From the IMG/VR virus record IMGVR_UViG_3300032257_000479, positions 1 to 64,000 of that record: DNA of 64,000 nt; one strand, written 5' to 3'. The notes beneath the pieces are model-generated. The model saw nothing but the letters and a program-made list of their open reading frames with translations, was not told the DNA's origin and did no database searches. The stretch comes from a virus. The position numbers were made by a program, and so were the translations under genes. Shown in pieces: positions 1,941 to 21,800 of the stretch; positions within the stretch are counted from its first letter, which is position 1, and each line of letters begins with the position of its first letter.

Positions 1941-3144
1941 CTGGCGGACTCCTGGTATCATCTAAATTAATATTATAAGAGTAAGTTATACCTCTCTTAT
2001 TATGAATACCGAAAAGCTTTTGTTCAGCCCTTGTTCCTGGTAAATTATTTTTAAGAGAATAAAGATCTGAACCAACGAACGACCCATTCATCAACAATCT
2101 TCCTGTATGAGAAGTCATCTCTGCAGAATTGTGAAAATGTCCGCAAAGAGCATAATGAAGCCGTTCCTGTAGCGTTGCCTGCATCTTGTTTTTAACTTCA
2201 GCAAAACCGTTTATTGGAGTACCCTTACTTTTAACATCATCTCCATGACACAGTAGGAAGTTGTGATCCTGAATGTTGGCAATCTTGAACCAACAGCGAG
2301 GTATATCAAAAGTAATTCTTGGATTATCTCTAAATCTAGCTCTAATGTACTCGTATATAATAATGTCCCAGTTACAGTAATCTTTTTCAAAACCGCTTGG
2401 AGCAACTCGACCATGATTTCCTCGAATTCCGTAAAACTTAATTGAGCCAAAAATAGACAACCAGTAATATATGGCGTTGGAAATAGCCTCTACTCCCTCC
2501 ATTACCTGATCAAAAATAGGCGTTGATATATAAACAGGAGACCATTTTCCGGCAGCATTCATGCCGTCAACAATATCTCCTAGACAGAATATATGAAGCT
2601 CAGGTATCTGGTACATCGAAGAGTGATGCTGATATATGTCAGCTACAGCATATTGAAAGTTTTTCATTCTTTGAGCGAATACATCTAAGTTGTATTCAGA
2701 GAGGCCGCCTGTCTCTTCAAAAGAATGCTCATGACCAATATGAAGGTCGCTAAGAATGATCCCCATATGCTCAGGAGTTCCATCCTTTTGACCTTTAGGC
2801 TTCCAAGTGCTTAACGGTGCCTTTGGGAAGGCCTCCATTGCTGAACATAGCTTATCTGCTATAACTTCTGTTCTTTGCTTATGAACGCCCAATCTATTAT
2901 TTGCAACTACTTCTTGATGCTCTATAAAGTTTTTTGTCTTCCGCTTTTTTATTATTTCATTTATACGATGAGGTATGTCTGATTCTTCCCATCTTGTTCC
3001 GCGGTATTTATCTTTGCATGCCTGACTTGTTCTTCCGAGTAACTTTGCTATTTCAGGATAGGGGGTATCAAGAAATCTGTGTTCATACAGAGAAACTGTA
3101 TCTTCCATACTCCAGGGTGTTCCCATTTTACTATCTTTTGACAT
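1903..3144 (-). CDS. Calcineurin-like metallophosphoesterase with N-terminal Myb/HTH-like domain
   Basis: All five motifs present: SDLHIG, LGDIVDG, GNHGR, HGD, GHFH; N-terminal WS...YPEIAKLLGRTSQACKDKY; SD AAGGAG. Confidence 0.85.
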   Translation of the reverse strand: MSKDSKMGTPWSMEDTVSLYEHRFLDTPYPEIAKLLGRTSQACKDKYRGTRWEESDIPHRINEIIKKRKTKNFIEHQEVVANNRLGVHKQRTEVIADKLCSAMEAFPKAPLSTWKPKGQKDGTPEHMGIILSDLHIGHEHSFEETGGLSEYNLDVFAQRMKNFQYAVADIYQHHSSMYQIPELHIFCLGDIVDGMNAAGKWSPVYISTPIFDQVMEGVEAISNAIYYWLSIFGSIKFYGIRGNHGRVAPSGFEKDYCNWDIIIYEYIRARFRDNPRITFDIPRCWFKIANIQDHNFLLCHGDDVKSKGTPINGFAEVKNKMQATLQERLHYALCGHFHNSAEMTSHTGRLLMNGSFVGSDLYSLKNNLPGTRAEQKLFGIHNKRGITYSYNINLDDTRSPPDDISTSMGDTVS

Positions 3145-3892
3145 TCGTCTCTCCTTCTGTTGCAGGAATCAATTCACTTCTGAATCTTCTCCATACATGC
3201 ATATGTGCTTTAATCATTTCTGATTTATGTTTTTCTGTCATTCCGTCTGCGTTTTTGCGATACTTAATTATTATTTCCGGAAGATTCGCAAAGACTCTAC
3301 CATCAACAATAGCTCTCGCCCAAAGATCCATATCTGGAACTGTATAAATACTTTCGTCAAGAGTATACCCGCCAAGACTCTCAAACACTTCCCTTTTAAA
3401 CATTGTTGATGGATCAATCATTGGATTTAACTGTTTATGCAGCAAACCATTAACAATTTGTCTATGCCGTATTGGAGGGTAATTCATAATTCCTGTTTGC
3501 TCACTTTCGTGATCGATCATAACAGCATGTCCGCCTACACAAAACACGCTATCATTCTTCTCCAAATATGCAATTTCTTTTTCAAAACGCATCGGCAAAC
3601 TTATATCATCGCCATCGTGGATTGCTACATATTTGCCCCTAGCAAGCCCAATTGCTTCATTTCTTCTTTTCGGAATCTTTTTGTTTTCCGAACTGTTAAT
3701 CATTATAACCCTATTGTCTTCTGCTAATATTTCTGTAGCAATTTTCCATGTAGAATCAGTTGAGCCATCGTTGATTATTATCCACTCGAAATCAGAATAT
3801 GTCTGATTAAGAACAGATTGTATTGATTCTTCAATAAATTGTTCACAATTATAAAGAGTGGTTATAATTGATAGCTTAGGATTCGAATACAT
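3131..3892 (-). CDS. Glycosyltransferase family 2 (GT-A)
   Basis: SIITTLYN, SVLNQTYSDFEWIIINDGSTD, RNEAIGLARGKYVAIHDGDD (DxD). Confidence 0.92.
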   Translation of the reverse strand: MYSNPKLSIITTLYNCEQFIEESIQSVLNQTYSDFEWIIINDGSTDSTWKIATEILAEDNRVIMINSSENKKIPKRRNEAIGLARGKYVAIHDGDDISLPMRFEKEIAYLEKNDSVFCVGGHAVMIDHESEQTGIMNYPPIRHRQIVNGLLHKQLNPMIDPSTMFKREVFESLGGYTLDESIYTVPDMDLWARAIVDGRVFANLPEIIIKYRKNADGMTEKHKSEMIKAHMHVWRRFRSELIPATEGETNVKR

Positions 3893-4982
3893 TTTTATAT
3901 TGCTCCCTTACTTTTTCCCAGTTATAATCACTTAATATCATATTTTTACCCTCTGAGCTTAATTTTTGATGAAGCTTTTCATCTGACAGCAATGCATCAA
4001 GTGAGTCTGTGAACTTGCCATAAACATTTGCTGAATACTGCAACAAACCAAGCCTTGATGTAAGACTTGGACATACTATGTTGCCCGCTAAAGATGGAAC
4101 ATTTCCAACATTAAGAGCAACATATGGCAATCCTGCAGCCATGCTCTCAAGTGCCACCAAAGGAGCAACTTCAGTTTGCGAAGGGAAAGCAAATACGGCA
4201 GACTCAAAAAAAGCTTGAATCGTATCTTTTCTCGATATGTTTGTTAGTGACAGAGACGGATATTTGGCTTTTTTTAACATCATGCTATGTCGGCGTTTCA
4301 TTGATTCCGCTGGAGCGTAATTAGACTTGCTCGAAATAAATAATGCAAAAAAATCCGATCTTTTTCCATGCAACTTGTTTAGTATGTGGTGTAAATGTTC
4401 TTGCCCTTTTCCTGGAAAAAAGTTAGACACACATAATATAATCTTTTTATCTTTTGGTATATTGAATTTCTGTCTAAAGTTAAATCCTTGATCTTTAAAT
4501 TCATTTAAATCAATAGCGTTTGGTATTACATTTACCGGAATATTCATCTTCCGGCATGTTTTGTAGTCAATGTAATCATCTGAATGGGTGATTACCTTAA
4601 AGCTATTATTGTTCTTTTGAAAATTAGCAAGAGTATCGCCATTGTTTCTCATATGATTCATACCAACTAAGGCAATGCTTTTCTTTCCAGGAATTAATTT
4701 GTGATTTCTAACAATGGACGGCCACATGGAAAACGAATCACTGTAAACAAGAGTGTGATCAGGCTGCAAGCTCTTTATTTGTTCAAGAAAATGTCTCTCA
4801 GACTGCTTGCACTGAACAACTTTTACTCCATTTATAGTGGTTTGACGATCAGCCCATTTTGCAAGAACAGTACAATCCATGCCAAAATCATTCGCCATAG
4901 ATTCCGTTATTTGCTGAACAACCTTTTCTGATCCACCAACATGGAAAGGAAATGCATGATTTACACAGACTACCAACTTCAT
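3876..4982 (-). CDS. Glycosyltransferase family 4 (GT-B)
   Basis: FPFHVGGSE, VIPNAID, KGQE, FPSQTEVAPLVALESMAAGLP (Ex7E). Confidence 0.92.
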   Translation of the reverse strand: MKLVVCVNHAFPFHVGGSEKVVQQITESMANDFGMDCTVLAKWADRQTTINGVKVVQCKQSERHFLEQIKSLQPDHTLVYSDSFSMWPSIVRNHKLIPGKKSIALVGMNHMRNNGDTLANFQKNNNSFKVITHSDDYIDYKTCRKMNIPVNVIPNAIDLNEFKDQGFNFRQKFNIPKDKKIILCVSNFFPGKGQEHLHHILNKLHGKRSDFFALFISSKSNYAPAESMKRRHSMMLKKAKYPSLSLTNISRKDTIQAFFESAVFAFPSQTEVAPLVALESMAAGLPYVALNVGNVPSLAGNIVCPSLTSRLGLLQYSANVYGKFTDSLDALLSDEKLHQKLSSEGKNMILSDYNWEKVREQYKNVFES

Positions 4983-4988
4983 AAAACC

Positions 4989-4996
4989 CTATCGAA
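4989..4996 (-). promoter_or_regulatory. Putative late promoter -10 element TTCGATAG (leaderless start)
   Basis: CGATA followed by exactly 7 nt and then the ATG at 4982; no clear SD. Confidence 0.55.
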
Positions 4997-5004
4997 AATA
5001 ATCA

Positions 5005-5772
5005 TTATTTATCTGAGTTCTTCACTGCTCTAAGTGAGTTTAATAGGCATTGACGTTGAACTCGAAATGTTTTTGTTCTCCATTTTTTAGAGAAATTCTT
5101 ATAACTATCGTTAAAGTATGTCATTTTTCTACTATTTTTTCCTAAAGTTTGATGTGGCAAATGGACAATTTTGGCTTTGTAGTTCCACGCAAGACGACCT
5201 CCATCTTCAATTATCCTAAAACAGAAATCAGGGTCCTCAAAATATGCTGGGTTATAAACAATATCGAACATACCTATTTTCTCTGGAAGTGATCCAAGCA
5301 TAAGCATCCCGCCGCAGCCAACATAAGTGAATGGGTCATTTGGTTTTTTTGCCATTCTTACAGGGAAATGCCTACCATTCATCATCCATGCCTCAACTCC
5401 AACCACAGATGCTCCAGACTCTCTTAATACCGCATGGTGTTGCTCAAACCACCCCTCTTGGACATATTGGTCATTATCCAAGAACATTAAGTATTTGGGC
5501 TTATTTTCAATCTTTTTATACATTTCAAAACCATGATTTCGACCGCCGATAACCCCAAGATTTTCTGGACTTGCAAAAAACAAAACGTTATCTTTCTCTT
5601 CTGAGACTTCTTTAAGATATTCTGCAGATCCATCTGTAGACCCATTATCAATAGCTATTAAAAAAATATCATCTTCACAGGTATTTTTGTAAAGATGATC
5701 AATGAAACGTTTTGTCGTTTCAATCCCATTATATGAAAGCATAACTAATGCAGTTCTTTTATCTTGTTCCAT
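5005..5772 (-). CDS. Glycosyltransferase family 2 (GT-A, rhamnosyltransferase-like subgroup)
   Basis: MLSYNG, IDNGSTDGS, ENLGVIGGRNHG, FLDND (DxD), GMFD...YFEDPDFCFR. Confidence 0.9.
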   Translation of the reverse strand: MEQDKRTALVMLSYNGIETTKRFIDHLYKNTCEDDIFLIAIDNGSTDGSAEYLKEVSEEKDNVLFFASPENLGVIGGRNHGFEMYKKIENKPKYLMFLDNDQYVQEGWFEQHHAVLRESGASVVGVEAWMMNGRHFPVRMAKKPNDPFTYVGCGGMLMLGSLPEKIGMFDIVYNPAYFEDPDFCFRIIEDGGRLAWNYKAKIVHLPHQTLGKNSRKMTYFNDSYKNFSKKWRTKTFRVQRQCLLNSLRAVKNSDK

Positions 5773-5778
5773 TCGTGC

Positions 5779-5786
5779 TTATCGGC
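5779..5786 (-). promoter_or_regulatory. Putative late promoter -10 element GCCGATAA (leaderless start)
   Basis: Exact sigma28 -10 consensus; CGATA + 7 nt + ATG at 5772; TAGA sits 15 nt upstream; no SD. Confidence 0.65.
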
Positions 5787-5794
5787 AATATTGA

Positions 5795-8700
5795 TTATGA
5801 ATCTAAAATTGTCACGATATTGCTTGTTGAAACCGATCCAACTGAAATTCCATCGAAAGGGACAACCTCGGCATACCATTCATCGCCTGCTGAAGTATTT
5901 GAAGATACAACTAAATTCTGTCCAGCCAACAAGGTCATTTCAGTAAACACTTCTTCTCCTAATCGTTTTCTAAACCAACGAATAGAGCTTTCATCTTGCT
6001 GACTCTGAGACCCCTGATTTATGTCGGTATCAAAGAAAGTGTAACTTAAATCTAATGCAGAGTCTAAAGCAGGTGAAGTTGGTATTATGATAACGCTAGA
6101 AACAATTGGTGGAGCATTTTCTACTGTTATGATAGAAGAGCTTACTGGATCGCTTATAAGATTTCCTGAAATTGGCCTAACCTCTACTTGCAAAGTGTTT
6201 CCAATTATCATTGCAACAACATTTCCTTGTATCTCTCCAGGTATTATCTCATTATTAGAAAGACCATTTGTTGATTCATTCAGAATACCCCTCTTGAACT
6301 CTATTCCATTTACATACCAAATGATAGTGCTTTCATTCTCGCCTCCGTCATCGAAGAAATTGAACGAGGCTATAGCTGGCGTTGCTGTTGTTATAGATTC
6401 TTGAAGGGTTCCAGTTGACGTTCTTCCCATTATTGACAACGTTGTTATAAATGGCGGAGCAGCGGCTACCTCAACTGATGGTGAACGGAATGTCTCTCCA
6501 AAGTTTGTTCCATCGCTAGGTCTAACTGAAAAGTAAATTATATCGCCAACGTTAATTAGACTTTCTCCTCTTTCGCGAGCAAATTCTTCAACGCTTGTTC
6601 CATCTGGAACATCATCTAAGTCAAAACTGAAACCAAATCCATAAACAGGATCAAGTATATCATTGATATCATTCCATGATCTAAGGTCTCTTAAATATTC
6701 AGCCTCTACACCATTGATGAACCATCTTATTTCTGTTTGATCTAAATCTTCGTCATCGCCGTTGATATCAAAGTATCTATATGTTGCATTTATTTTCGAG
6801 TATATCGATGGGCTGTTAGGGACTACCAAAAGGCTCTGAGCTTCAGGTGGTCTAGCCGACAAAGGAGGAGGCAAGAACACATTTGTGTTCCACATATATC
6901 CAACGCCCTTAATATTTATGTCTTCCGAAGCGAATCTATTTATAACCTGAATTCCTATTCTGAATTCATTGGAATTTTCTATATCAAGGAAGAATGGTCC
7001 TTCTCTTTTGTCTTTAAATACTATCAATCCCTGTCTTGGATAAGCCCTGTAATCCTCGTCATCGATTGCAGCAGACAAGCTATCCCTTATAGTTACTAAA
7101 GAATTAATGTCCCATGGTCCATACTTTGTCTTCCAAACAAATCCGTCTATACTTTCAAGCTGCTCTTCAAGATCAGTATTATCTTGCTGAGTTCTAATCG
7201 GGATAAACAATTTGCCATACTGATCAACAGATGGTCTTGCTCCTGTATGGAAATCATCCCAAGAAGAAGATTGACTATTAGCTACTCCAACTTGAATTTC
7301 GCTTTCTGTTGGTCTATTTGCATCTACCGTTACAGCTATTTGTTGTGCTCCAAATAACGAGCTATCAACGTTCAAGTATAAAAAGCTTATCTTAGGTAAA
7401 CTGTATCTAATATTTATGCCAGTTAGCGATGGAACGCCAGGCGTTGCAATGTCTTCGTATTCTTCTAGGACAGAAGCAGACAAACCACTCAGTAACGATA
7501 CCTTAAACTTAAAGTAGCGCCCTGTTAGCTTAAAGAATTCAACATCACTATTTGGATCAAACTGATCTGATAGGTCAGAAAAATTAAATCCATCATCTGA
7601 TGATTGAACTGTCCAGTTTCCGTCAGTATTTTCGAATAATGAATAATCAAGAACAATTGAATTGACAACGCTTATTTGTCCGAGATCAATAATTGCATCG
7701 TAAGTTCCCCAGCCAACAGAGCCTGCAGCTCTACCTATCATGTTATTTAAAACTTCATTCAAAAACAGTGCATCTAGAACGGTTTGAGATTGGCCTCCTG
7801 TTTCATTTGCTATTTGCTCAAGATCGTCAGTGTCTGTTCTTGCCAACAGTGCAGAAAGAGTTACAGGGAAAACTACTGAGAAGTTGTTTACAAGAACAGG
7901 AACTTCAGCAAAACCATCTATTGCTTGAACATTTTCAAGAGCAGTATCTAAACCGATAAACGACAAACTCTCTTCATTGTCAGTTTGAGCATAAATTATT
8001 TTTGAGAATGAATCAAGAGATTCATCTAGCATTGATTCAGCTACAGCTCCTATTCCATCATAAAACGGAGAAGCTCCAAATGGAACATTGTTTCTTATTC
8101 TATCCAGGAAGCCAAGAGCTTCCTCTGCTGTCCCGATGTTATTATCAATATAAGGGATAACTTGAGGAACCCATTCAATATCGCTATAGTAACTTACGCT
8201 AGGGCTTTCTAATTGAGCAGATTGAGGCGGATTGATATCAAATACTGGATTATTTCCGTCAAGAAGATCATCCCCTATAACAACTCCTCCTGTATTTGTA
8301 TCATCAGTGTCGGTATCCGTATTTGTATCACCAGTATTATCGTTTGATGGAACCTCTCTTGTTACAGAGAATGATCTACATCCTTCAAATAATGGTGAAT
8401 ATGGATCTGTTTCAGCTCCAGGCAATACATCAGGATTTCCATCATCATCTAAATCGTCATCATTTGTATCATCATCAGGATCTTGAGTTTCTATAAATTC
8501 GTCAGGGTCTTCATTGTCATTGAAATCAACAATCGTCTGTCCATAATAAAAGTCATCAACAACAGTTAACTGTAATCTAATAAAGTATGGGTTCCTAACA
8601 TCGCCTTCTCCAATGACAAATGGTTCAACAATATTTTCAGAATCGGTATCTTCGCCCCTTCTTGCTAGCTCTAGCTTTTTCTCTATTTCATTTACTTTGT

Positions 8701-11700
8701 CCAATATGTCTTCTGATCTAGGAAGTAATGTGGATGAAGCTATACCATTAACAGCGATAATGTCATTGCTTGAGAAAATTACTGGGTAAACTAATGATGC
8801 TCTATCAACATTATCCGAAGAAGACTGTTGGTTATCATCGCTGCCTCCTCCGCCTCCTTGTAGATCATCTGCATCATCTGAATTTGCGCTATCAGGCAGA
8901 ACAACGTATCCTCTAAGCAATATTCTAACATCTGTGGTTGGAGGCTCTCCAACATCATCAAGAAGCTCTATTGATATTCCAGCCGATTGTTTTCCGTCAA
9001 GCAACAGTTCTACAGGATTTACTGTAGAATTGATTTGCAAAAAGCCTGGCGGTCTACCGCTTGTTATTCCTCCTGCTACATAAATATATCTAAAGTCGTC
9101 TGAAGCCATTCCGAACGCCTGTCTAGGAACATCCACTCCAGTCAATTCATTGAAATTAAATGGAGCAATAGTATCTGAAGCGTCTATCGATTCAAAAGTC
9201 CTAGAAACCTTACTCTTTCTGCTTTCCCCGCCAAGGAAATATGAAATATCCTGAACTGTAACAGATGAACCTTTGTATCTAGGGTTTGGTATGCTGAAGT
9301 ACGAACTCTCATCATTTTGTATTGAAAGAGTATTTAGGTCAATGGAGTAAGTGTCTGTTAGAAGTATTATTTCTTGATTCTGACCTTCTCCAACAGGTAC
9401 TGCTCCGCCAGAAACTCTCAATGTATTATCTGAATCAGAATGGAACATGAATGGGGAAATTCTTTGATAAAGAACAAGGTCAGATCCTGTAAATGCATCT
9501 GAAACTTCCCACTCGTCAGAATCTATGTTATAGATAACAATTCTGTCATTCATCTCTTGCACAGATCCTTGAGACCCAACTATTCGTATCCCGCCGACAA
9601 TATAAATCTTGGAGCCAACTTTTACTGAAGCTCCCATAGATATTCCATATGATTCGAATTCATTGTCATTCAATGTTGGCATGTTGCTTAAATTAAACCA
9701 TGAGTCAGAACTGCTATCATATCTTTCAGCAGTCTTCGTTACAACAAGATCATTGTCTTCTATGGAAAATCCCCCAAAGACATAAACGTCCCCTGAATCT
9801 TGCTCTGCGTTATGATAAAATCTTGGAGTTGTCATCTCAGCCATATCTGTCCATGTTTGAGAATCTATTCTGTATTGCTCATTGTATGATGAAACTTTAT
9901 TGCCATCAATTCCGCCAATGGCGTAAAGTATCTCACCATATGGATCAAAACTCCAAGTAAGAGTCAATGCTCCCCTTGGGTGGTTTAAGTCATTCGGAAC
10001 TGTTGACCACTCATCTGTAACAGTGTCATAAATATCGATAGAGCCATTATAAACATTATCAACAACAGCCACTTGGGTAACATCGTCATCTGGCTCACTA
10101 TCATCTTCTGCGTCTATTGAATAATTAATAGTAACACAAGATGTCATCAATCTTTCAGTATCGCCTCTCTTGTCATAAGATATAGATGCTTGAACTTGAG
10201 CTTCAAATTCTTGTATCGGACTCATTGGTAATAATGTAAAGTATGCAAGCGACTCTTCTTCCGAAGCATTAACCAAAGGGTCTACAATGTTTTCTGTAAA
10301 AATAACTTGTTCTGGAACCTGTATTTTACTTGGATTTTTTCCGCCGACAGTTAAAGTTATAGGAGTTCCTGTCGGGACATTATTTCCAGCGAAACTAGCT
10401 CTTACAACAAATGTGTGAGAAGACTGTCCGTCAATAAGAAGATCTTGAACAACTTCATTCTCTCTTCTTACCTGTATTACATTAATCTGCAAAGGTTCTT
10501 TTAGCCTAACTATACATGGAGGTATACCATTCTCTGCTCCGCCTCCACCGCTAAGATATTGTATTTCGCCATCAAGCTCAGTCTCAGCTCTTCCGCTAAC
10601 TACATTATCATTATCCTCTCTTCTATAAGTGAAATCGATAGCTCCGCATGTATTTTCAATAGGATCAACATTGCCTCCTGTATCTGGATCTGATGGGCCT
10701 ATGAATTGATTTATTCTTAAGAATGCGTCTGTCTTGTTTTCATCATCAAGAACTATTGTTGCATAACCAATCTCTTCTTCATGATTACTGAAAACTGGTT
10801 CATCTATATATGGATCAAATCCAATTTCAAGATTAGGGCCATGCAAAACTTCGAACGCATTCCCTGTTTCAATTTCAACCAATTGTCCTGCATTAAGAAC
10901 AAAAAGAGTTCCGCCAAAATCATCTGAACATTCTCTGAACACATTTCCCATTAAGCCAGAAGCCTGATTCGGATCTTTCCATATAGTTAATCTTTCGTAA
11001 TCAAAACCATCAGCCCACATATTGACTTGATAATCTCTTAAGTGCATAAGGAATCTTGATCCAAAACCGCTATTGGTTGCAGGCGGATAAATAAATGCTG
11101 GCTTTTCTGCAAATGCTGACAATCCGCTATATACAACATCAACTCTAATTGCATAAAGTTCAGGAAGCAACTGAGGACCAAAATCTCCGTTAAATATATA
11201 CCAAGTAACACCGCAAGCTGGCCCAAAGAACACTCTTCTGGCAGTTCCGCTAGACGTTCTTGAGAATACTCCTGGTCCGTTATTTACAACATTGTCAGTA
11301 GAATAAAAGGGTCTATCTTTTCCTGAAACACCTTTCTTTAAATTCCATTTCACAATTTCGTTATCTGGTATGGGTGTTCTTCTGTCTGGATCATCTGGAT
11401 TTATTAAATAAGCAGAAGCAAATTGTTCGGCAACATCAACACAGTCAGGAGATGGGATAGATTCAGTAAGCTCTATTTGAAGTATATTCTCAAAAGCAAT
11501 ATACATTTTTCTGCGGCCAAAAAATCCGTTATAGCTAGCTTTAGCAAAAAGCATTACGCCTTCTGGCAAAAACGGTGCTTGAAGATCAATATCTGCGAAA
11601 CTAAATTGATTTGATCTTACATCAGAATCATCATCAACATCTTCATCCTCTGTTCCTAATAGTAAGTCAAAAGTAGTTGATTGAGGCAAAACGGTTTTAC

Positions 11701-14700
11701 TTTTAAAGTTGGAAAAAGATGGTTCAAATTCTACTGAAGGGTCAGATAAATTATCATCGCAACCTGGATCAGAAGCTTGGTGGACTGCAATAAATGTTTT
11801 TCCGCCATCAATTATTGCTTCATCTCTATATGTAACTTTAACTCTTGCTGTAAATGGCTCTTGTCTTCTTATGTATGTTCCATCAAAAGACTTTGATTGA
11901 TCTGATTCCAATAATCCGCCAGTGCTTTGAGTGACAACACTGCTTAGATCTATTTCCGATTTACAAATATGATCTATTCTGTCATTCCCAAGATTTATTA
12001 ACTCCATTTTAAATGGGTTCTTTAAAGATATGGAAATAGGTTTTGAATTAAAAGCAAAAATGTCTTGGAGAGGATTATCTCTATCAGGTATTGTGAATGA
12101 AACAAAGACGCTCGCACTGATAGTATCCAGTGCAGACAATATATCAAAATCATCAGACATTCTCAATATGCCTCTAAGAACTCCATTTCCTTGAGGTGTT
12201 GTTGTCAATATTGTTGATTCATTAAAATCAGGAATGCTTGTGCTTCTATTTATCTCTTCTCCGAACACATCTTCGCTATTACCGGCTCCAGAAACACTTC
12301 CTGATGCTCTAAACTTAAGATTGGATTCATCTGCAATTGGTGAACCAAACTCATCTGTTATTTGAGCGAATAAAGCAACCCTTTGATCGAACCAGCCATC
12401 TATTGATCTTTGGAAAAGAACAGGCTGTTCCCATTGAATACTTATAGCATCATCTGTAACAAGCTCATATCTAAGTTTTCTTACTTCTAATAATGGTATG
12501 CCTGTTTCATCTGAATCTTCTCTTGGCGTTGATGTGGCGTATGTAACTGTGGATGCATAGCCATACTTGTCAACAGTGACAAACGCATAAAATGCTTGAA
12601 TGTTATTATCTATATTTCTGTGAACAAATTCTGTTTGATTAGGATTTCCTCTAAATACCATTTCCGAAGAAGAGGATGTTCCCTGATCATCTATTATTGG
12701 ATAATTGCCGGTTTCATAAAATACTTTTACTTCTTTTACGGAATCAGTTAATCCCGGTATTTGCCAATTAAAATATATTTTCCTGTTACCAGATTGTGCT
12801 ACAATGCTATCTACTGTCGGAAGAGCTGATGCGCCGCCCGTTACATCAAACCTTTGATTATTATCATCGAATCCGGGTATTAAGACAGAAAGAACAGGAG
12901 AATCGTTCCATATTGAATAATTTCCTATGGCGTTTTGTGAGAATATTTTATAGTGATATTCTCTTCCATGTATGTAGTCTTGGGATACTGTAAAAAAGAA
13001 TTCGCCAGAAGATGCTGACTCTTCATATATTACAACTCCATCATTTTCATGATAAGGAATGTCTCCAAAACCTATATCCTCAAAAGTAAACTCGCCAGTC
13101 TGCAAGTTATCAACTCTATCCTGAAGTCTCGGTCCCGCCTCCTCTTTTTCGATAACCCTAACCGAACCATTTACAAAGTCATAATCTGAAGGAACACTAT
13201 ATCTGAACGAAAGTATCCTGTCTCCATTGTCAAGCTGCTTTTGCTCATTCTCTCCAACTGTGGAAGAAGCGTTTTGTATGTAAGAAATATCTCTTACAGT
13301 GTTATGAATAGAGACTTCTGTTAGTTTTCCGAATGAAGCAAAATAATTCGGAGGAGAGATTCCTACTGCTCCTATTGAAAAATGACTTACATCCGCATTG
13401 CTTAATGGGGAAACAAATGATCCGCTCGATTCAAGCGATCCATTTACATATACTTTTATGTCGTTTAAATCAGCATCATATGTTACCGATATTTGATTCC
13501 ATTGATTCAAAACTAATGGATCAGTCGTCGTTGCTGTTCCAGAAGTGCTTCTATTTAAAACAAAAACGTTCTGTCCTTCTAAGAACACAAACAATCCAAC
13601 AGCAAACGAATCTGGATTATATTCGCTGTATATGTATTGTCTTGGGCCTCCTGATATTTCATAAGGGAATACCCATGACATGAAAGTAAATCCGCCAGAG
13701 TCTGGCAACAATGATCCCGATGAGCTTAATTCATGCTCCCAATAATGATCATTTCCGTTCAATCTAATTCCTGAACGACCTACTGGCACATCTTCTTCGT
13801 TTAACCATATTGGTTCTGCCTGGTTCTTCGCTGAAAGATGGTATTGATTTGAAGTAAAATCAAAAGCTTCTGTTCCAGACCCCTCATTGAAATGCCATGA
13901 AGCTAAAACGTTGTTGTCTAATTTTGTTCCTGATCCTCTTAATATAGTGCTTGTAAATGAACCTATGCCTCTTGGTATAACTCTGGTTCTTGGCGTGGCT
14001 TGTATGCTATTGCCATCGCTAAAGGTTCCATTTTGATCAAATGAGTATACTGTATAGAAGTAATCATCATTCTCTATTAGGTTGTCATCAAAAGACCTAT
14101 CAAGGAATCCCTCCGTAACGATATCTCCATCAATTGCGTTTGCTGAAAATGATGCATCTTTTCTTAATACTCTAACTCCAGCATACCCACTTTCTTGATC
14201 TGCGAAAAAAGCTCCCGCTATATCATTTCCATCAGATGTGTCTATTTCTTCATCTTCTAATACCGCGAAAAAGTTTACTCGAATAGGAGTTGATTCGAAC
14301 GAATACAGATTAAAGAAAACTTGTCCTGGATATGTTGAATCCAACCTATTGATTAATCTTCTTATTACTTCATGTCTTGTTTTTGGCTCATCGTTCCATG
14401 TCATAGACCCCGATTGGTCTATAAGTATTGAAACTATTCTATCAGGAAGCTGAAGTGAAACTTCGTTTGATGTTCCATCATCATTCTGAATTTGAGTGTT
14501 TGTGAATATTGGCTCACTTAATGGGTCATCAAACTTGTTTGTTGAATCAATAAATTCTTCTGCTGTGGGAGTCTGTATGACGCACCCTGACTCATCGAGA
14601 GAATCAACGAAGAACCACATGGTTAATGCGAATCGATCATCAGAAGCAATCCAGCCAGCGTCTGAATCATTGCTAAATGACTGTAGGGCAATATATGGGT

Positions 14701-15499
14701 CAATATCAGAGCTAGCTGAATCCCAAACTATGTAAGATGAATCAGAACTACCTACAGGATACAGCGAAAACGCATAACTTGAGTCGTAGTCTATTGAAGA
14801 CCCATCAAACTTTTGCATATCGAAATTATATGAATCATCAAGGCTTATTTCGCTAAAGGTTGATTTTGCGTCATAAAACGGCCCAAGAGAAGAGGGCTCA
14901 TTGGATACAAGTTCATGGACACCTGCATGAAGAGTAATATATGGGTATTGATCATATTCAACAGTTCCAGGGAGAGGGCCATCCGGAACAACACAGATAT
15001 AGTCTATATGAGTATCGCCAGTTAAAACGCTCAAACTCAAAGTTCTATCTGATTTATCTGGAATAACAATTGATGTAGTTAAAGTTGACCAAACATTTGA
15101 AGACACAACTGTTTCATCCAACTGTTGAACAAGGCTTCCGCTAACATATAGATTTGTTTTTAAATTGCTTGAAGATGTTTTGTATCTTATGTAAACATCA
15201 TATTTTCTCGCGGAATCTGATGATATTGGATAATGTAGTTTTGCTCCATCATCGCCTGACCCATATGACGTAAAGTACATTGAACCGAAACCTGTTGATC
15301 CATCCTCGAATGGTTCATGGCGAACGCTTGGATTGCCTCTTTCCCAATCTGAAAAATTTGAAGCATCAAGAAATACAGCATCATCATCGTTAAATATGAA
15401 TCTATTCCCGGCAGTTACATTTGTAGGCCACAAATAAGTGGTAGCCTTTCTGAATGGCATATCACTGGTTGAAATGAATCCTTGAGCGGTAATTTTCAT
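5795..15499 (-). CDS. Giant multidomain virion/tail-associated protein, 3234 aa: CBM-like N-terminus, split VWA, FN3-like, LamG, Ig-like, Kelch propeller, three C-terminal AIR9/Ig-like repeats
   Basis: DQSGSM MIDAS; WHFNEGSG...FTFMSWV...WNQISVTYD (LamG); repeated LYAIGG/VYVFGG/IYIVGG...YD...W (Kelch); PP..(I)RWF.NG...V.P.DG repeats; lies in the tail module. Confidence 0.85.
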   Translation of the reverse strand: MKITAQGFISTSDMPFRKATTYLWPTNVTAGNRFIFNDDDAVFLDASNFSDWERGNPSVRHEPFEDGSTGFGSMYFTSYGSGDDGAKLHYPISSDSARKYDVYIRYKTSSSNLKTNLYVSGSLVQQLDETVVSSNVWSTLTTSIVIPDKSDRTLSLSVLTGDTHIDYICVVPDGPLPGTVEYDQYPYITLHAGVHELVSNEPSSLGPFYDAKSTFSEISLDDSYNFDMQKFDGSSIDYDSSYAFSLYPVGSSDSSYIVWDSASSDIDPYIALQSFSNDSDAGWIASDDRFALTMWFFVDSLDESGCVIQTPTAEEFIDSTNKFDDPLSEPIFTNTQIQNDDGTSNEVSLQLPDRIVSILIDQSGSMTWNDEPKTRHEVIRRLINRLDSTYPGQVFFNLYSFESTPIRVNFFAVLEDEEIDTSDGNDIAGAFFADQESGYAGVRVLRKDASFSANAIDGDIVTEGFLDRSFDDNLIENDDYFYTVYSFDQNGTFSDGNSIQATPRTRVIPRGIGSFTSTILRGSGTKLDNNVLASWHFNEGSGTEAFDFTSNQYHLSAKNQAEPIWLNEEDVPVGRSGIRLNGNDHYWEHELSSSGSLLPDSGGFTFMSWVFPYEISGGPRQYIYSEYNPDSFAVGLFVFLEGQNVFVLNRSTSGTATTTDPLVLNQWNQISVTYDADLNDIKVYVNGSLESSGSFVSPLSNADVSHFSIGAVGISPPNYFASFGKLTEVSIHNTVRDISYIQNASSTVGENEQKQLDNGDRILSFRYSVPSDYDFVNGSVRVIEKEEAGPRLQDRVDNLQTGEFTFEDIGFGDIPYHENDGVVIYEESASSGEFFFTVSQDYIHGREYHYKIFSQNAIGNYSIWNDSPVLSVLIPGFDDNNQRFDVTGGASALPTVDSIVAQSGNRKIYFNWQIPGLTDSVKEVKVFYETGNYPIIDDQGTSSSSEMVFRGNPNQTEFVHRNIDNNIQAFYAFVTVDKYGYASTVTYATSTPREDSDETGIPLLEVRKLRYELVTDDAISIQWEQPVLFQRSIDGWFDQRVALFAQITDEFGSPIADESNLKFRASGSVSGAGNSEDVFGEEINRSTSIPDFNESTILTTTPQGNGVLRGILRMSDDFDILSALDTISASVFVSFTIPDRDNPLQDIFAFNSKPISISLKNPFKMELINLGNDRIDHICKSEIDLSSVVTQSTGGLLESDQSKSFDGTYIRRQEPFTARVKVTYRDEAIIDGGKTFIAVHQASDPGCDDNLSDPSVEFEPSFSNFKSKTVLPQSTTFDLLLGTEDEDVDDDSDVRSNQFSFADIDLQAPFLPEGVMLFAKASYNGFFGRRKMYIAFENILQIELTESIPSPDCVDVAEQFASAYLINPDDPDRRTPIPDNEIVKWNLKKGVSGKDRPFYSTDNVVNNGPGVFSRTSSGTARRVFFGPACGVTWYIFNGDFGPQLLPELYAIRVDVVYSGLSAFAEKPAFIYPPATNSGFGSRFLMHLRDYQVNMWADGFDYERLTIWKDPNQASGLMGNVFRECSDDFGGTLFVLNAGQLVEIETGNAFEVLHGPNLEIGFDPYIDEPVFSNHEEEIGYATIVLDDENKTDAFLRINQFIGPSDPDTGGNVDPIENTCGAIDFTYRREDNDNVVSGRAETELDGEIQYLSGGGGAENGIPPCIVRLKEPLQINVIQVRRENEVVQDLLIDGQSSHTFVVRASFAGNNVPTGTPITLTVGGKNPSKIQVPEQVIFTENIVDPLVNASEEESLAYFTLLPMSPIQEFEAQVQASISYDKRGDTERLMTSCVTINYSIDAEDDSEPDDDVTQVAVVDNVYNGSIDIYDTVTDEWSTVPNDLNHPRGALTLTWSFDPYGEILYAIGGIDGNKVSSYNEQYRIDSQTWTDMAEMTTPRFYHNAEQDSGDVYVFGGFSIEDNDLVVTKTAERYDSSSDSWFNLSNMPTLNDNEFESYGISMGASVKVGSKIYIVGGIRIVGSQGSVQEMNDRIVIYNIDSDEWEVSDAFTGSDLVLYQRISPFMFHSDSDNTLRVSGGAVPVGEGQNQEIILLTDTYSIDLNTLSIQNDESSYFSIPNPRYKGSSVTVQDISYFLGGESRKSKVSRTFESIDASDTIAPFNFNELTGVDVPRQAFGMASDDFRYIYVAGGITSGRPPGFLQINSTVNPVELLLDGKQSAGISIELLDDVGEPPTTDVRILLRGYVVLPDSANSDDADDLQGGGGGSDDNQQSSSDNVDRASLVYPVIFSSNDIIAVNGIASSTLLPRSEDILDKVNEIEKKLELARRGEDTDSENIVEPFVIGEGDVRNPYFIRLQLTVVDDFYYGQTIVDFNDNEDPDEFIETQDPDDDTNDDDLDDDGNPDVLPGAETDPYSPLFEGCRSFSVTREVPSNDNTGDTNTDTDTDDTNTGGVVIGDDLLDGNNPVFDINPPQSAQLESPSVSYYSDIEWVPQVIPYIDNNIGTAEEALGFLDRIRNNVPFGASPFYDGIGAVAESMLDESLDSFSKIIYAQTDNEESLSFIGLDTALENVQAIDGFAEVPVLVNNFSVVFPVTLSALLARTDTDDLEQIANETGGQSQTVLDALFLNEVLNNMIGRAAGSVGWGTYDAIIDLGQISVVNSIVLDYSLFENTDGNWTVQSSDDGFNFSDLSDQFDPNSDVEFFKLTGRYFKFKVSLLSGLSASVLEEYEDIATPGVPSLTGINIRYSLPKISFLYLNVDSSLFGAQQIAVTVDANRPTESEIQVGVANSQSSSWDDFHTGARPSVDQYGKLFIPIRTQQDNTDLEEQLESIDGFVWKTKYGPWDINSLVTIRDSLSAAIDDEDYRAYPRQGLIVFKDKREGPFFLDIENSNEFRIGIQVINRFASEDINIKGVGYMWNTNVFLPPPLSARPPEAQSLLVVPNSPSIYSKINATYRYFDINGDDEDLDQTEIRWFINGVEAEYLRDLRSWNDINDILDPVYGFGFSFDLDDVPDGTSVEEFARERGESLINVGDIIYFSVRPSDGTNFGETFRSPSVEVAAAPPFITTLSIMGRTSTGTLQESITTATPAIASFNFFDDGGENESTIIWYVNGIEFKRGILNESTNGLSNNEIIPGEIQGNVVAMIIGNTLQVEVRPISGNLISDPVSSSIITVENAPPIVSSVIIIPTSPALDSALDLSYTFFDTDINQGSQSQQDESSIRWFRKRLGEEVFTEMTLLAGQNLVVSSNTSAGDEWYAEVVPFDGISVGSVSTSNIVTILDS

Positions 15500-15521: not shown

Positions 15522-18500
15522 CTATAGTCTTTGTCCTGATGCAAGCCTTCTAATCTGAGACTCTGATTTTATTTTAAATGTGTTATAAGAGAACATCCAT
15601 ACCTCTTCGTTAACTATCAAAACCTTGTGTATAGTGTCAAATCCTGAATCTGAAATCGATATACCAAAATCGTTTATGGTAACCAGTCTTCCGTCGCTTA
15701 AACCGCTTACTACTTGAAGAACGCTCGAATCTATATCATTAGCAACAATATCTGCTGAAAGGCTAGCGTCATTAAATACATCAACAAGCCTTAAATTAAC
15801 TCTTTCTGCATAAAAGAATCCGCCGTCTTCTCTTATTCCATTATCTGTTGCGAGATAAATCTTGTTCCTATATTTAACAAGAGAATTAATATTTTGGTTT
15901 GTTGTTCCTATTAGCGTCCAAGAAAAACCATCTGTCGAATAAAATACTTCATTCTTAGCTATTGCAAATGTCGCATCTGGAGATATTATAGAGCCAACTC
16001 CAACTTCAGACTCTTGAACAAAAGTCCAACTATCCTGAAGCTCTTTTCTTGCATAAATGCCATCTTCAGCTCCTATTACAAGATTTGTATTAAACAGTCC
16101 AACTATCTCAAAAATATTGGAAGGAAGACCCAGTCCAGGATCCCTTGTTGACGTTTTTTCTATCGTATCATATGTATACAGTGCCGTTTGATCTAGAATA
16201 AATACTTGATCGTTGCTTACATGCATGTCTTTTATTTGCAAATCTCTTCTTGAGTCTATTACTACTTCATCTATCTTATATGTTTCAACATCAATAGATA
16301 AAACTCCTCCTGCCCCTCCGACCCAAACTTGCCCCAGAGATTCAATATATATAATTGATGTTGGATAAGGGATGCTAAAATTTCTTTTCCCAAAATTAAC
16401 AAGTTCCTCGAAATCAACTGTTGAATTAAATACATCATATACATCCGTACTACATGGAAGTATGTATTTAGCTTGATATGGTGGAACCATCTGCATTGCT
16501 GATGAGTTTGTTTTTGATAAATTTAATCCCATTTGAAGAAGATTGGAATCTCTTGTTTGAGATAAATGAGATGGAAGGCCTGAGTTTACCCACTCAAACG
16601 TATCCTCTATTGTTGCATGAGGAAGACTTGTATTGTCAAAAATTGGATTCGTTATACTTATTGTTAATATGTCTTTTTTTGTCATTTCTTTATTTAAGAC
16701 AACAACGCCATTGATTGAATTCGCAATGGATACAAGGTTATAATTCAAGTAATCAGGTTCTGAATTATTATCAATAGAAGTGTTTACGGAGTTGTATCTA
16801 CTAACCCCAAAGCCTTCAATCGTATCAGAGTTTGAACTCGGAACTTCAACGAATGAAACCGCAGAACCTGTTGAACTGCTTGATGAGCTTTCTCCAAACA
16901 GAAAATTATCTGCAATAGTTCCTTCTGCGGCAAAAATAACTAAACCGGAATCAACTGCCGACTGCAAATCTGTTGAGCTAAATGCCATTTGAGGAGTCAA
17001 TAGGACTCCAACTTCAGTTGTATCTTTATCAAAAACAAATGATTCAGTACCTTGAAGTTCTAAAAAGTCATCATATTTAACAAACCATGAAGTCAATCCA
17101 ACTCTATCAGTATCTATTTCTTGAGGAGATGATATCGGTAAACATGATCCGTAAACCTTTGTTCCCAATAAAGATTGACTTATAACAACATCAAAGAACA
17201 ACCTCTCGGAACCGATGTCGCATGTGTCGTGAAAAGACAATGAAGACAATCCTATATCTAGCCATGGATTCCAGTTCTGCTCAAAATACTGCAAATGCAA
17301 AGAATTATTAACTACATCATATGTCTCAGCATTATCATAATCTATTTCATGAGTATCAAGTTTGCTTAAATTGGGTTCAATCTTTATTCCGCCATGAACT
17401 ATTATCTCTATTTCTTCATTATTGTTAGATATCCAGTCAGATAATTGAGACTGAATAGCAGCCTTTCTTGATGAGATCATCGGCCCCCACTGATTAGGGC
17501 TATACTTCTCTTCATTATTTATCTGATTGCCAGCAGGCATATAAAACAAAAATCTTCTAAACCCAAGACTGTAATCATCTGTTAGTTTGTTTATCAAATT
17601 AGAAACGCCATCTGCAGCTTGCCACCATGAGGCAAAAGCATTAGAAGCTCCTGTTGAAGAAAGAAAAGAGTCTTCCCACATAATATATACTCTTACTGGT
17701 CTATGATCTGTTTCGCTTAATGTTCCTGCGGTTGAAGATATGACCTCAATAGGCAAAAACTCTTCGATATCTATTTCACTTAATGTTGAAATCGACTTGC
17801 TCGATGATATTGTGTCACTTCCTGAATTGCTCAACCCTCCAACCGGCCTATTTCTAGATCCTCCTGAATTTTCTTGCTGCGGAACAGAAGGTAGAAGCCT
17901 TTCTATCTCATCCAAATAATCAGATTGTATATTCCCATCAGGGTCAGATTCGTATTCATATAGAGCACCAATAGCGTGAGCGCCGGATATAAATGGAACA
18001 GTAAGTTGTTGTTCCCAATTTATTTCATTTAACGGTTTTCTGGAATATGGTGGAAGAGATGAGTATACATGTTCAAAAACAGGAAGGACATAAAGTGATT
18101 TATAAAGAGAATGCAGTCTATACGCCTCAAGAGTATTGCTTGATATGTATGAGCTATTTGTAGACCTTATGTTCTCTATTCCTGTTTGAGGAGTTTTTTT
18201 GTCCTCTATCGTATACCTTATGGCTCTCACCAATGGAGCCAAAACATCAACCTTTTCCCATAACCAACTTAAATCATTGTTCAATTTTTGTGCATTATTA
18301 TATGAATCACCTTTAACTGCATCGAATCTTGTTCCATAGCCAACAATTCCAGGTCCAACAGAAACAAGGGAATCATTTTTGTATACGGCACCTGGCAAAT
18401 CAACAAATCCAACTTTTGCTTTTGGTATGATATCTTTTATCGCGCTAATTGTTTTTAAATAAAATTCTTGAACAACCGAATTCCATTGAGACTTCGATAA

Positions 18501-18812
18501 CCCATTATGAAAAGAGGAATTTTCCGGATAATCAAAATGAGGGTGCCATTTTTTTCTATAATCTATTAAGATAATCCCATCGAATGATTTGTCTCTAACT
18601 TTTTTAATGACATCTTGTTTTACTTTTTCTTCATGACGAGATATCCATTCTGAATCATTGAATATTTGATAAGGTCCGCTTAATGGAAATTCTCCAATCT
18701 CAGATATTTCAAAACGAAATGAATTCAAAGACGCATTCTGTAAATCTACGCGCAATGAATCCGATATTTCTTTTGAGTAAAATCCAAATAAATTATAACC
18801 ATTAATGCTCAA
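15522..18812 (-). CDS. Virion-type protein, 1096 aa: GH56 hyaluronidase-like domain (degenerate), second putative TIM-barrel-like domain, C-terminal beta-propeller, Ser-rich linkers
   Basis: TTG start with GGAGG SD; GH56-like motifs in order (IILIDYRKKW, NNDLSWLWEKVDVLAP, LEAYRL, LPVF); propeller-like VWVGGAGG, LVIGAEDG, YSTDGFSW, YLATDNG. Confidence 0.75.
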   Translation of the reverse strand: MSINGYNLFGFYSKEISDSLRVDLQNASLNSFRFEISEIGEFPLSGPYQIFNDSEWISRHEEKVKQDVIKKVRDKSFDGIILIDYRKKWHPHFDYPENSSFHNGLSKSQWNSVVQEFYLKTISAIKDIIPKAKVGFVDLPGAVYKNDSLVSVGPGIVGYGTRFDAVKGDSYNNAQKLNNDLSWLWEKVDVLAPLVRAIRYTIEDKKTPQTGIENIRSTNSSYISSNTLEAYRLHSLYKSLYVLPVFEHVYSSLPPYSRKPLNEINWEQQLTVPFISGAHAIGALYEYESDPDGNIQSDYLDEIERLLPSVPQQENSGGSRNRPVGGLSNSGSDTISSSKSISTLSEIDIEEFLPIEVISSTAGTLSETDHRPVRVYIMWEDSFLSSTGASNAFASWWQAADGVSNLINKLTDDYSLGFRRFLFYMPAGNQINNEEKYSPNQWGPMISSRKAAIQSQLSDWISNNNEEIEIIVHGGIKIEPNLSKLDTHEIDYDNAETYDVVNNSLHLQYFEQNWNPWLDIGLSSLSFHDTCDIGSERLFFDVVISQSLLGTKVYGSCLPISSPQEIDTDRVGLTSWFVKYDDFLELQGTESFVFDKDTTEVGVLLTPQMAFSSTDLQSAVDSGLVIFAAEGTIADNFLFGESSSSSSTGSAVSFVEVPSSNSDTIEGFGVSRYNSVNTSIDNNSEPDYLNYNLVSIANSINGVVVLNKEMTKKDILTISITNPIFDNTSLPHATIEDTFEWVNSGLPSHLSQTRDSNLLQMGLNLSKTNSSAMQMVPPYQAKYILPCSTDVYDVFNSTVDFEELVNFGKRNFSIPYPTSIIYIESLGQVWVGGAGGVLSIDVETYKIDEVVIDSRRDLQIKDMHVSNDQVFILDQTALYTYDTIEKTSTRDPGLGLPSNIFEIVGLFNTNLVIGAEDGIYARKELQDSWTFVQESEVGVGSIISPDATFAIAKNEVFYSTDGFSWTLIGTTNQNINSLVKYRNKIYLATDNGIREDGGFFYAERVNLRLVDVFNDASLSADIVANDIDSSVLQVVSGLSDGRLVTINDFGISISDSGFDTIHKVLIVNEEVWMFSYNTFKIKSESQIRRLASGQRL

Positions 18813-18816
18813 TTAC

Positions 18817-21800
18817 TTATCCTCCAATTCCGCCGCCGATATCTTCTTCAGATACTGGTCCATCAAGGTCTTCCTCTATAGAAGTATTATCGCCATAAGT
18901 TCCGAATTCCTCAACTCCATAACTCTTGAAATCCTCGTTAGAAGAAAGAAGCAAGACCCTAAAAGCTGGGACTTCAAATGGCGAAACTGTGTTATCTTCG
19001 TTTGTTATTGTTCTTGCTTCTGGATATACTTGAGATAAGAACCTATCAAGTGAATTCAAGAAAATAACTACATTAGCCTTGTTGAAGTTTAAAAGAATAG
19101 GATTATCTGCATCATCGCCTAGGTCTAAAAGCGTTGAAGCTATTGATTGTAACCCAGTGAGAGCTGTATCAGCTCCGGCTTTGTGAGCATTTCTATCGTT
19201 GTATTCTGGCAATATGAGATTGCCAATTGCTGTTGCAGGTCTTTCTGTTACGCTCCAGTCATTAACAAAAAATCCATTAACGAACAGTTGAACGCCTGAT
19301 TCATAATTGGAATCAGCCCAACCTCCATTTTCGGCCTTGTATCTCTTATATTGATTAGCTATTGTTACTACAGACCCAATTTTTTGCTTTTCATCAAAAC
19401 ATACAAATTTTCTTAAATCCTGAGTTGCCGTGTTGTATCTTACCCCGATTTTTTGTTCAACGCCATCAATATAAACAGTTGGAACCGTATTCCCTGTATC
19501 TTCCCATTGCAAGCTCATAGACCCTGGATTTACGGACAAAAATAGCTGTTCCTCTGTTCCTATGAACATCTTGTCATCTATTATATTCATTGATGATGCA
19601 GGCGGAATAAAGCTTCCGCTATTCATTTGAGGAAAAGCTAGCTCAAAATCGATTTCGGAGTCATTGTCTATATCGCTATTTGGCAAACTAACAAGAAGTC
19701 CCTTGTCTGTCGTTATGAATACTCTGTCTCTCCATATTTCAATTTTCCTTGTTATATCAACATCTCTGAGTATGGATACTCTTTGGAATTCCGTTTCTCC
19801 TGGCTTCCTTCTCCATAAAATAAATTGAGTAATAGCAAAAATCGTGTCGCCATACATCTTAAACTGAAATATGGGTCTTTGATCTGGCATCTCATCGCTA
19901 AAGCTCCAAAGGACTCCACCATTATCAGATTCGAAAATGCCAAGTTCATTACTTACCAAAACTCTATCTCTAACATGATCGTAAATAGTGTCATATGATT
20001 CTGTTGATCTTGGCCCAAAAATTGGAGTTTGTTCCCAAAAGTAAAAATCTCTTCCGATATCTTGTATTAGTTTAAATACTCCAATATCAGATGTGCAAAA
20101 AATATCCCCATCCGGAGTTTCTGAAATACCTCTTGTTATTTTAGCATTTTCCATCCCCTGTATTTCTCTCCATGTGCCAAAACTTCCAGCATTTTCTTTT
20201 CCTCTTTTCCCAAAAACTCCCCTATTAGTTAATGCAAAAAACATATCTATGCTACTTGAGTAATAAAATTCTATAACAGGGGTTGAAAAAGATCTTCTTC
20301 TAATCCATGTTGCACCAAAGTCCTGGCTTGTATATATCCCGTTACTACTACTTCCAACGAGAACATCGCCATCTTCTGTGGTATTTGCCAAAATAATATC
20401 ATACCAAGTTATCGCATCGCCAATTATTTGTCCTTCATTAACAGGAGTAAATCTGTAACCATCATCTACTGCTAGCATTGGCTCTTGAATCGGTATCAGC
20501 AATTCTTTTATTCTACCCTCATGCCCAATATCCGGCAATTGTCTTTTTTCAACAAGGCCTATTGTTACCTGATTAGCAGAAGCGCTCTCCAGTCTTTCTT
20601 GCGGTAAAATCCCCTGAGTCTCAGTTAAACCCTCGAATACAACAACAAGCTCAGGCGGGCTATCAAAAGGAAAATCATTATTATCATTTGTAGAAAAATC
20701 TGTTGGAGCGAGCTTCTTTTCAAAAGTTATTCTTCCCAATTCTCTATCTATATTAAATAGCAAATCAAAATCTGATGCTAACTGATCATTTAAAAATACC
20801 TCAAAAGAAAAAGTGTTCTCTAGATCAGCAGTTGTTGTATAGTTTTGGAAATTTTGAGTAACCCAATCGTCAACCCTTATTACATCCCCAAGATTAATTC
20901 GCCTATCATCTATTCTTGTAAAAAACTCATGCTTATGAGCGGATATGAGTTCTTGAGCTTTTTCTTTTATCGGGTCCTCAAGATCTTTTATCTCTCTTAC
21001 GCCAGACTGATCAATTTCTATTACGCCATTTGTCGTTTCGACTGTTCCTAAAAATTGAGCATTATTTACAACAATATCTGATTCTGTTACAAATAAATCT
21101 GCTTCATTTTTAAATTTTCGAACTATGTAATAATATGTGTCAGATTCCAATAAAGATTCTGGATCATTATAGGAAGTTTGCGATGGAGGAGTTGTGTCAA
21201 CTAGCTCAAACTCGTAAGTGTTTCCTATTGATTTAAATATTTCATATCCATCAAATTGCCCTGCTGTAGGATCCCATAACAAATCAATTCCAGTTGTTGC
21301 TCCATCTATCTGAATAGATAAGTTTGCAGGAGTTCCAAGCTCTCCTGAAGTAGTTGGAGTCAACAATATTAAATTATAATCAAAGAAATCATCATCAACA
21401 GGATTCAATGATTCTATTCCATACAAGTCTATTGTGGTAACAAAATATGCATATGTCGTAAGATTGTTAACATCATAATCTGTGTAATTAAAAGTAAGGC
21501 TATCAACAGTTTCTATCCTGGCAAAATCTGAGGATATATATGATATCTGTTGGTCTGCTCTGTATATTCTATAGCTAACAGCTATTTCTGAGTCTGGTTG
21601 ATTCCATGATATTGTATTTTCTGAATCATTTGATACGCCGAGTATTTGATTCGGAGCAGAAGGTCTAGTAAGATCAGATATGTTAGGGATGTCAAATACA
21701 ACATCTCTCTCGCTGCTCTCGTTGCCAAACTCATCTCTTGCTTTTATTGAAAAAACGTAAGACGAGTCCGATACTATGTCTTCTTGATTAATTATGTAGC

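Follow-up and report, generated by a model that had tools for sequence, protein, structure and literature searches.

We present evidence that a giant viral protein contains a single von Willebrand factor A (vWA) domain whose two pieces are separated by roughly 2,020 residues of other domains. The protein, P0001, has 3,234 amino acids (aa) and is encoded by a single open reading frame (ORF) at 5795..15499 on the minus strand of the window, which is the 64,000-nucleotide stretch from positions 1 to 64,000 of IMG/VR record IMGVR_UViG_3300032257_000479. We consider it likely that P0001 is an adhesin-like giant structural protein of the phage tail module, in which one discontinuous vWA domain with its MIDAS (metal-ion-dependent adhesion site) serves as a clasp by fold complementation. 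Residues 351-415 would supply strand beta1 with the DxSxS motif, helix alpha1 and strand beta2, while residues 2433-2600 would supply beta3 through alpha6, together with a Ser and an Asp needed to make the metal site whole. From the region of the beta2-beta3 hairpin the chain would depart from the vWA fold, pass through a conserved series of folded domains (FN3-like and LamG domains, others that are unassigned, a Kelch propeller, an Ig-like domain and also an acidic linker) and come back. The fold and the metal site are those of an ordinary vWA domain; what sets it apart is the scale of the insert and, in relatives of P0001, the natural fission of the domain into two genes.

Sequence evidence for a divided vWA domain

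The first piece (aa 351-415; window 14255..14449, minus strand) is delimited by its Pfam alignment, its invariant residues and its predicted interface residues, and holds beta1 with D361, S363 and S365 of the DxSxS motif, alpha1, beta2 (aa 394-401) and an extra strand-like stretch at aa 405-413. The Pfam family VWA_2 aligns aa 358-406 to positions 3-50 of its 107 profile positions and nothing beyond, with an E-value of 1.8e-5 and 25.7 bits for the excised piece (cut-off 27) and 19.5 bits for the whole protein. The second piece (aa 2433-2600; window 7700..8203, minus strand) was recognised through co-folding, conservation, profile, model and fold searches, and holds beta3, alpha2, the G-x-S2477 segment with Ser at the MIDAS Thr position, beta4 with D2507, and alpha4 to alpha6. 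A profile of the C piece in 51 relatives (A1) matches the vWA domains of TRAP best (E 0.002) and GBS104 next, and its alignment to TRAP spans the beta2/beta3 strands and the G-x-T loop up to the 'TDG' of beta4. The corresponding profile of the N piece (A2) gives weak matches to vWA proteins across beta1-alpha1-beta2. The pieces are complementary, without overlap, for beta1-alpha1 on the one side and alpha2-alpha6 on the other. Since a beta-rich, FN3-like segment follows the N piece (the sequence after aa 415) and an acidic linker comes before the C piece, there is no room nearby for either missing part, and neither piece is a complete domain.

A preliminary description, made by reading the sequence alone, had proposed a vWA domain split into two such segments. 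The strings it quoted stand where it had placed them (IVSILIDQSGSM at aa 355, FNLYSF at 396, EEALGFLDRI at 2459 and ANETGGQ at 2564), the first half matches the first half of VWA_2 only, and its estimate of about 2,050 intervening residues agrees with the 2,057 that we count from F401 to E2459 (about 2,020 if boundaries at 416 and 2432 are used). The domain is neither contiguous nor interrupted by short inserts only.

Predicted structure of the joined pieces

We co-folded aa 340-425 with aa 2425-2610 as two separate chains, in three runs and with 3 controls. The score was 0.78, as against 0.01 for the best control, and passed a mark that 51 of 78 solved complexes attain, as do 2 of 108 mismatched pairs. 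At least 87% of contacts are common to the three runs, with a predicted local distance difference test (pLDDT) of at least 71 for the partners, whereas the pLDDT of each piece falls to 35-42 when it is given an unrelated partner. The contacts of highest certainty place beta1 beside beta4 (aa 355-359 with aa 2500-2504, in register), beta2 beside beta3 (aa 399/400 with aa 2448) and alpha1 on alpha2 (aa 383-387 with aa 2458-2465). The pairing of beta1 with beta4 is the canonical vWA arrangement, and the predicted alpha/beta fold has the central sheet of a vWA domain, with beta1 between beta2 and beta4; the proposal that the two halves co-fold as one MIDAS domain was thus borne out by prediction. 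The interface takes in all of aa 394-415 and aa 2433-2451, from which we infer that a short neck of two strands, located at the beta2-beta3 hairpin, is where the chain both exits and returns. Solved structures include a great many vWA domains, so that what the co-folding result mainly shows is the vWA likeness of the joined pieces, which is the very question at issue. Modelled alone with AlphaFold2 (AF2), the C piece has three strands and six helices at a pLDDT of 73, its first 33 residues being of low confidence and without secondary structure.

Conservation in relatives that carry both pieces

With the C piece as query, a search of 1.84 billion representative proteins gave 114 clusters. In 51 of these (clusters at 50% identity, from independent assemblies), all long, both pieces are present at a spacing of 1,673-2,862 residues (median 1,973). 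Homologues with a shorter insert, or none, had been put forward as a useful comparison; the spacing does vary over this range, but in none of the 51 long relatives are the pieces adjacent or separated by a short insert. In an alignment of 52 sequences, D361, G364, S365, W368 and D370 of the N piece and G2475, D2507 and G2569 of the C piece are invariant wherever the residue is present, the S363 column holds 50 Ser and 1 Thr, and the MIDAS Thr position (S2477) holds 51 Ser and 1 Thr. The full set of MIDAS residues (DxSxS, Thr and Asp) is therefore represented, with Ser at the Thr position. The two-piece layout is not due to chance, given that 51 long clusters share both pieces and that the metal-site residues hardly vary, if at all. 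A complete predicted metal site, with residues about 2,100 apart in sequence, is strictly selected, and the intact motif suggests that the assembled domain binds a divalent cation and perhaps an acidic ligand. We also note that W368 and D370 (window 14390-14398), which lie just after DxSxS in the string 'SMTWND' and are among the residues invariant in the 52 sequences, fall outside the standard MIDAS; they may extend the metal site or a ligand site.

The insert (aa 416-2432; window 8204..14254, minus strand) is conserved too. By BLAST coverage, aa 300-2300 are represented in about 46 of the 51 long relatives, and the variable parts are limited to aa 1-300, present in just 7-19 of the 51, and the acidic linker at aa 2300-2430. 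Four relatives of 4,625-5,031 aa (P0031, P0041, P0044 and P0053) have some 2,000 extra residues before an N piece that lies at about aa 2,030-2,160, so that the length of the N-terminal extension varies between next to none and about 2,000 residues.

These data bear on whether the two pieces might instead be relics of two former vWA domains, or parts of different domains, that do not interact. Such a reading could draw on the fact that neither piece alone passes the Pfam cut-off, and on some redundancy between the two, in that a beta2/beta3-like hairpin appears in each profile alignment. It is at odds with the complementarity of the pieces, with the invariance or near-invariance of MIDAS residues across both of them in 52 sequences, with the margin by which they co-fold over controls, and with the beta-rich segment directly after the N piece and the acidic linker before the C piece; conservation this strict is not expected of a relic. 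We regard this alternative as very improbable, and take the pieces to be parts of one domain.

Relatives in which the domain is divided between two genes

A further 57 C pieces occur on proteins that lack the N piece. In 16 clusters the protein starts with a Met at about position 2155 of P0001, before the Ig-like domain that begins 'LDGKQS', and in 20 clusters at about position 1640-1790, before the Kelch propeller; both start sites are domain boundaries inside the insert. In both cases with upstream DNA (contigs L004 and L005) the N piece is found on the ORF immediately upstream. In L004 a 2,173-aa ORF (3478-9999) with the N piece at aa 28-124 (E 2e-35) ends in TAA and is followed, after one base, by the ATG of a 1,048-aa ORF (10001-13147), and in L005 a 1,773-aa ORF with the N piece at aa 330-416 overlaps a 1,096-aa ORF by TAATG. 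The motif IDQSGS(M/E)TWND is retained in both upstream ORFs, and the metal-site residues of the C piece are as fixed in the 57 split-type sequences as in the fused ones. In L003 and L008 an upstream ORF ends right at the start codon of the C-piece gene; the contigs L008, L009 and L010 end close to that gene, short of any upstream partner. Fused and split forms are interleaved on a tree built from the C piece and the domain that follows it (86 rows), with at least 14 changes of state, 4-6 of which are forced by well-supported branches alone. Breaks or fusions of the chain within the insert have therefore occurred repeatedly, with both pieces kept.

That the two-gene form is real in some relatives might be taken to mean that the long ORF of P0001 arose as a chimera during sequence assembly, or that two genes were wrongly called as one. 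We find this scarcely credible, given that the frame is open throughout its 3,234 codons and that the fused form recurs in 51 clusters from independent assemblies, including a 3,258-aa ORF on a 488-kb contig.

The split relatives pose a more serious question about how the pieces of the fused protein meet. Because these relatives must build the fold from two chains, pairing in trans is plainly viable, and the N piece of one P0001 chain could pair with the C piece of another, a domain swap that would give dimers or head-to-tail chains. The frequent interchange of fused and split states on the tree is in keeping with this, and co-folding of separate chains makes no distinction between cis and trans. 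Local concentration, in contrast, favours pairing within a chain. Fused forms also tend to have a longer linker before the C piece (median 102 residues, as against 44 in split forms; Mann-Whitney p 0.004), as if to give slack for closure, but this trend is confounded by phylogeny: the short-linker sequences form one clade, the fused member P0034 also has a short linker, and we do not count the difference as evidence. We think the domain swap unlikely and infer that in P0001 the pieces pair within the chain. The preliminary description had further supposed that the vWA domain closes a very large loop. The co-folding of the halves upholds the idea of a single domain; closure within one chain is our reading of a result with which pairing between chains is equally compatible.

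Assembled within the chain, the vWA domain would be a clasp that ties the N-terminal part of P0001 to its C-terminal beta-sandwich module, with the insert of about 2,020 residues projecting as a loop or arm, and in split relatives the same complementation would join two polypeptides. Such a clasp probably joins distant parts of a giant fibre. We give an even chance to the broader idea that the pieces are a portable joint, in which the metal-binding vWA domain of this phage lineage assembles only once a beta-alpha-beta piece of 65 residues has docked into the other 170 residues, and which closes or couples giant tail-fibre proteins. This joint, possibly a natural and metal-dependent device for split-domain assembly, would explain the repeated cutting and rejoining inside the insert without loss of either piece.

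Domain layout of P0001

P0001 is strongly acidic (D+E = 509, as against K+R = 201). Its N-terminal extension (aa 1-350; window 14450..15499, minus strand) has weak matches to carbohydrate-binding modules. The preliminary description had listed FN3-like, LamG, Ig-like and Kelch domains between the two vWA pieces. The LamG or concanavalin-like domain (aa 595-736; window 13292..13717, minus strand; PF13385, E 2e-12, 47.9 bits) and the Kelch beta-propeller (aa 1817-2015; window 9455..10051, minus strand; PF24681, PF24981, PF01344 and others) both lie above Pfam cut-offs, and the propeller probably reaches to about aa 2150; the FN3-like and Ig-like assignments are a reading of the sequence together with weak matches. 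The acidic, low-complexity linker (aa 2327-2432; window 8204..8521, minus strand), which varies among relatives, stands directly N-terminal to the second vWA piece.

Beyond that piece, the C-terminal module (aa 2596-3234; window 5798..7714, minus strand) is a chain of beta-sandwich domains that is kept in fused and split relatives alike. Its first domain is weakly discoidin-like (a weak F5/8 type C match) and is followed by Ig/FN3-like domains; the module includes three repeats of about 95 aa. An AF2 model of these 639 residues has a pLDDT of 91.9, and its structural matches are generic Ig/FN3 arrays only, with no functional lead.

Genomic context

The source record, from an uncultured giant tailed phage, is 169.5 kb long (CheckV completeness 25%), and the nearest related contig, the 488-kb contig from IMG/VR mentioned above, also carries the same downstream genes. 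All 22 window ORFs of at least 150 aa are on the minus strand. They include, in order of transcription, genes for a minor tail protein (60732-61787, minus strand; phrog_290) and a tape measure protein (55681-58998, minus strand; phrog_794 and phrog_167). Downstream of the tape measure gene come eight giant co-oriented ORFs of 1,096-3,234 aa, the last of which is the vWA gene, with four smaller ORFs interspersed, one of them for a GT4 glycosyltransferase (43583-44680). P0001 is most likely a fibre or adhesin of the tail module, built from carbohydrate-binding-type and Ig-type modules, and as such it would be present in the virion.

The genes transcribed after the vWA gene encode GT2, GT4 and GT2 glycosyltransferases and also an exonuclease. 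The GT2-GT4-GT2 trio lies directly 3' of the vWA gene in the window (3131-5772, minus strand), in L004 (13147-15736) and in L007 (12460-15079); in L002 the trio is similar, except that the first glycosyltransferase is longer, and in L009 the region downstream of the vWA gene (4836-6723) has Pfam matches for GT2 and GT4 only. The giant vWA protein may be glycosylated. Directly upstream of it, the 1,096-aa ORF at 15522-18812 (minus strand) has a match to GH56 hyaluronidases at aa 105-249 (PF01630, E 8.4e-9, 35.2 bits against a cut-off of 23.2), and its product may be a tail-associated glycan depolymerase. Elsewhere on the related contigs, L005 carries a homologue of translation initiation factor IF3 (20653-21150; PF05198 and PF00707) and an AAA ATPase gene with a faint intein-splicing match, and L002 carries a ResIII helicase gene, again with a faint intein-splicing match (10388-13164). 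We also considered a link to the 'moraphage' lineage and found it unsupported: the genomes of that lineage measure 200-307 kb and have yielded no tape measure gene, nor is any protein of this kind mentioned (PMC12619734).

Discussion

Several observations weigh against the interpretation of P0001 as a tail protein with one discontinuous vWA domain. The N piece scores under the Pfam gathering cut-off (25.7 against 27 bits), as is expected of half a domain, and the C piece alone, searched as a single sequence, has no Pfam match and no PDB sequence match. Each piece's profile alignment contains a beta2/beta3-like hairpin, so the strand order at the insertion point is not settled. Foldseek on the model of the C piece was ambiguous, placing LarE first at a template-modelling (TM) score of 0.26 with vWA entries at TM 0.43-0.45; an exhaustive VIA-align search resolved the ambiguity in favour of vWA. 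Both structural arguments are predictions, and in the co-folding the pieces were two separate chains. An upstream N piece was checked at the DNA level in only 2 of 36 presumed split clusters, and in L010 the neighbour directly upstream of the C-piece gene is on the opposite strand and is not an N-piece gene. The tail-fibre role is read from gene position alone, and no PHROG or cultured-phage homologue of P0001 was found that would support it. With respect to L010, we note that the opposite-strand ORF (1-336) is accompanied by a TnpB-like gene (5462-5836; PF07282) downstream of the C-piece gene, an arrangement that may be a local rearrangement.

Profile and fold searches alike assign the two halves to complementary parts of the vWA fold, and the best of these matches are to canonical vWA and integrin I-type domains (PF00092, PF13519; the integrin alpha1 I domain 2b2x, VWF A1-A3 and Plasmodium TRAP 4f1j). 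P0001 shares with them the predicted fold, with beta1 next to beta4, and the MIDAS pattern DxSxS ... (T/S) ... D. It differs in that the domain is interrupted by an insert about nine times its own length, in that 51 of 52 sequences have Ser at the MIDAS Thr position, in that its scores lie under the Pfam cut-offs, and in that the domain is divided over two polypeptides in relatives. The vWA domains of sortase-pilus tip adhesins have two short arms as inserts in their fold, set around the MIDAS (PMC5536039), and, in agreement with a comparison drawn in the preliminary description, RrgA (2ww8), GBS104 (3txa, 3tvy) and SpaC (6m48) are among the structural matches to the C piece and the profile matches. 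Like P0001, these are adhesin vWA domains with inserted polypeptide. Their arms, however, are short sub-structures, whereas the insert of P0001, which is predicted to lie in the beta2-beta3 region, consists of some 2,000 residues of independent domains. They also have LPXTG signals and CnaB domains; P0001 is encoded in a phage tail module, lacks both an LPXTG motif and a hydrophobic tail at its C-terminus (which ends ...NIVTILDS), and has no Cna_B among its Pfam matches.

Split pleckstrin homology (PH) domains, which are found in PLC-gamma and syntrophin among others, similarly build one small fold from two segments around whole inserted domains. Their fold is unrelated, the inserts are of one to three domains and a few hundred residues at most, and, to our knowledge, these families do not show genes naturally split across the insert. 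Myosin X provides an example of this layout, PH1N-PH2-PH1C (PMC3216653). In concept, split PH domains and the vWA domains of pilus-tip adhesins are the closest parallels to P0001. A full-text literature search found no published description of a split, discontinuous, interrupted or bipartite vWA domain. We likewise found no match among GenBank phages, whether the gene was compared by megablast or aa 2425-2760 by tblastn, the latter against 50,697 GenBank phage records, and the PHROG matches of P0001 are confined to its Kelch region.

Domains are commonly found inserted into others. Across 48,551 insertion events, a survey found inserts to be consistently smaller than their hosts (PMC13114784); P0001, by contrast, has a host domain of about 230 residues and an insert of about 2,020 that is conserved and comprises several domains. 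The repeated natural cuts inside that insert provide a ready-made experiment for reconstituting a vWA domain from two chains. If the interpretation presented here is correct, it also carries a warning for annotation, since proteins of this kind will have been recorded as lacking a vWA domain because neither half passes the Pfam cut-off. It would provide a natural split-vWA pair that might be used as a module for protein ligation or metal-gated dimerisation, and it would reveal a principle by which very large phages assemble their giant tail proteins.

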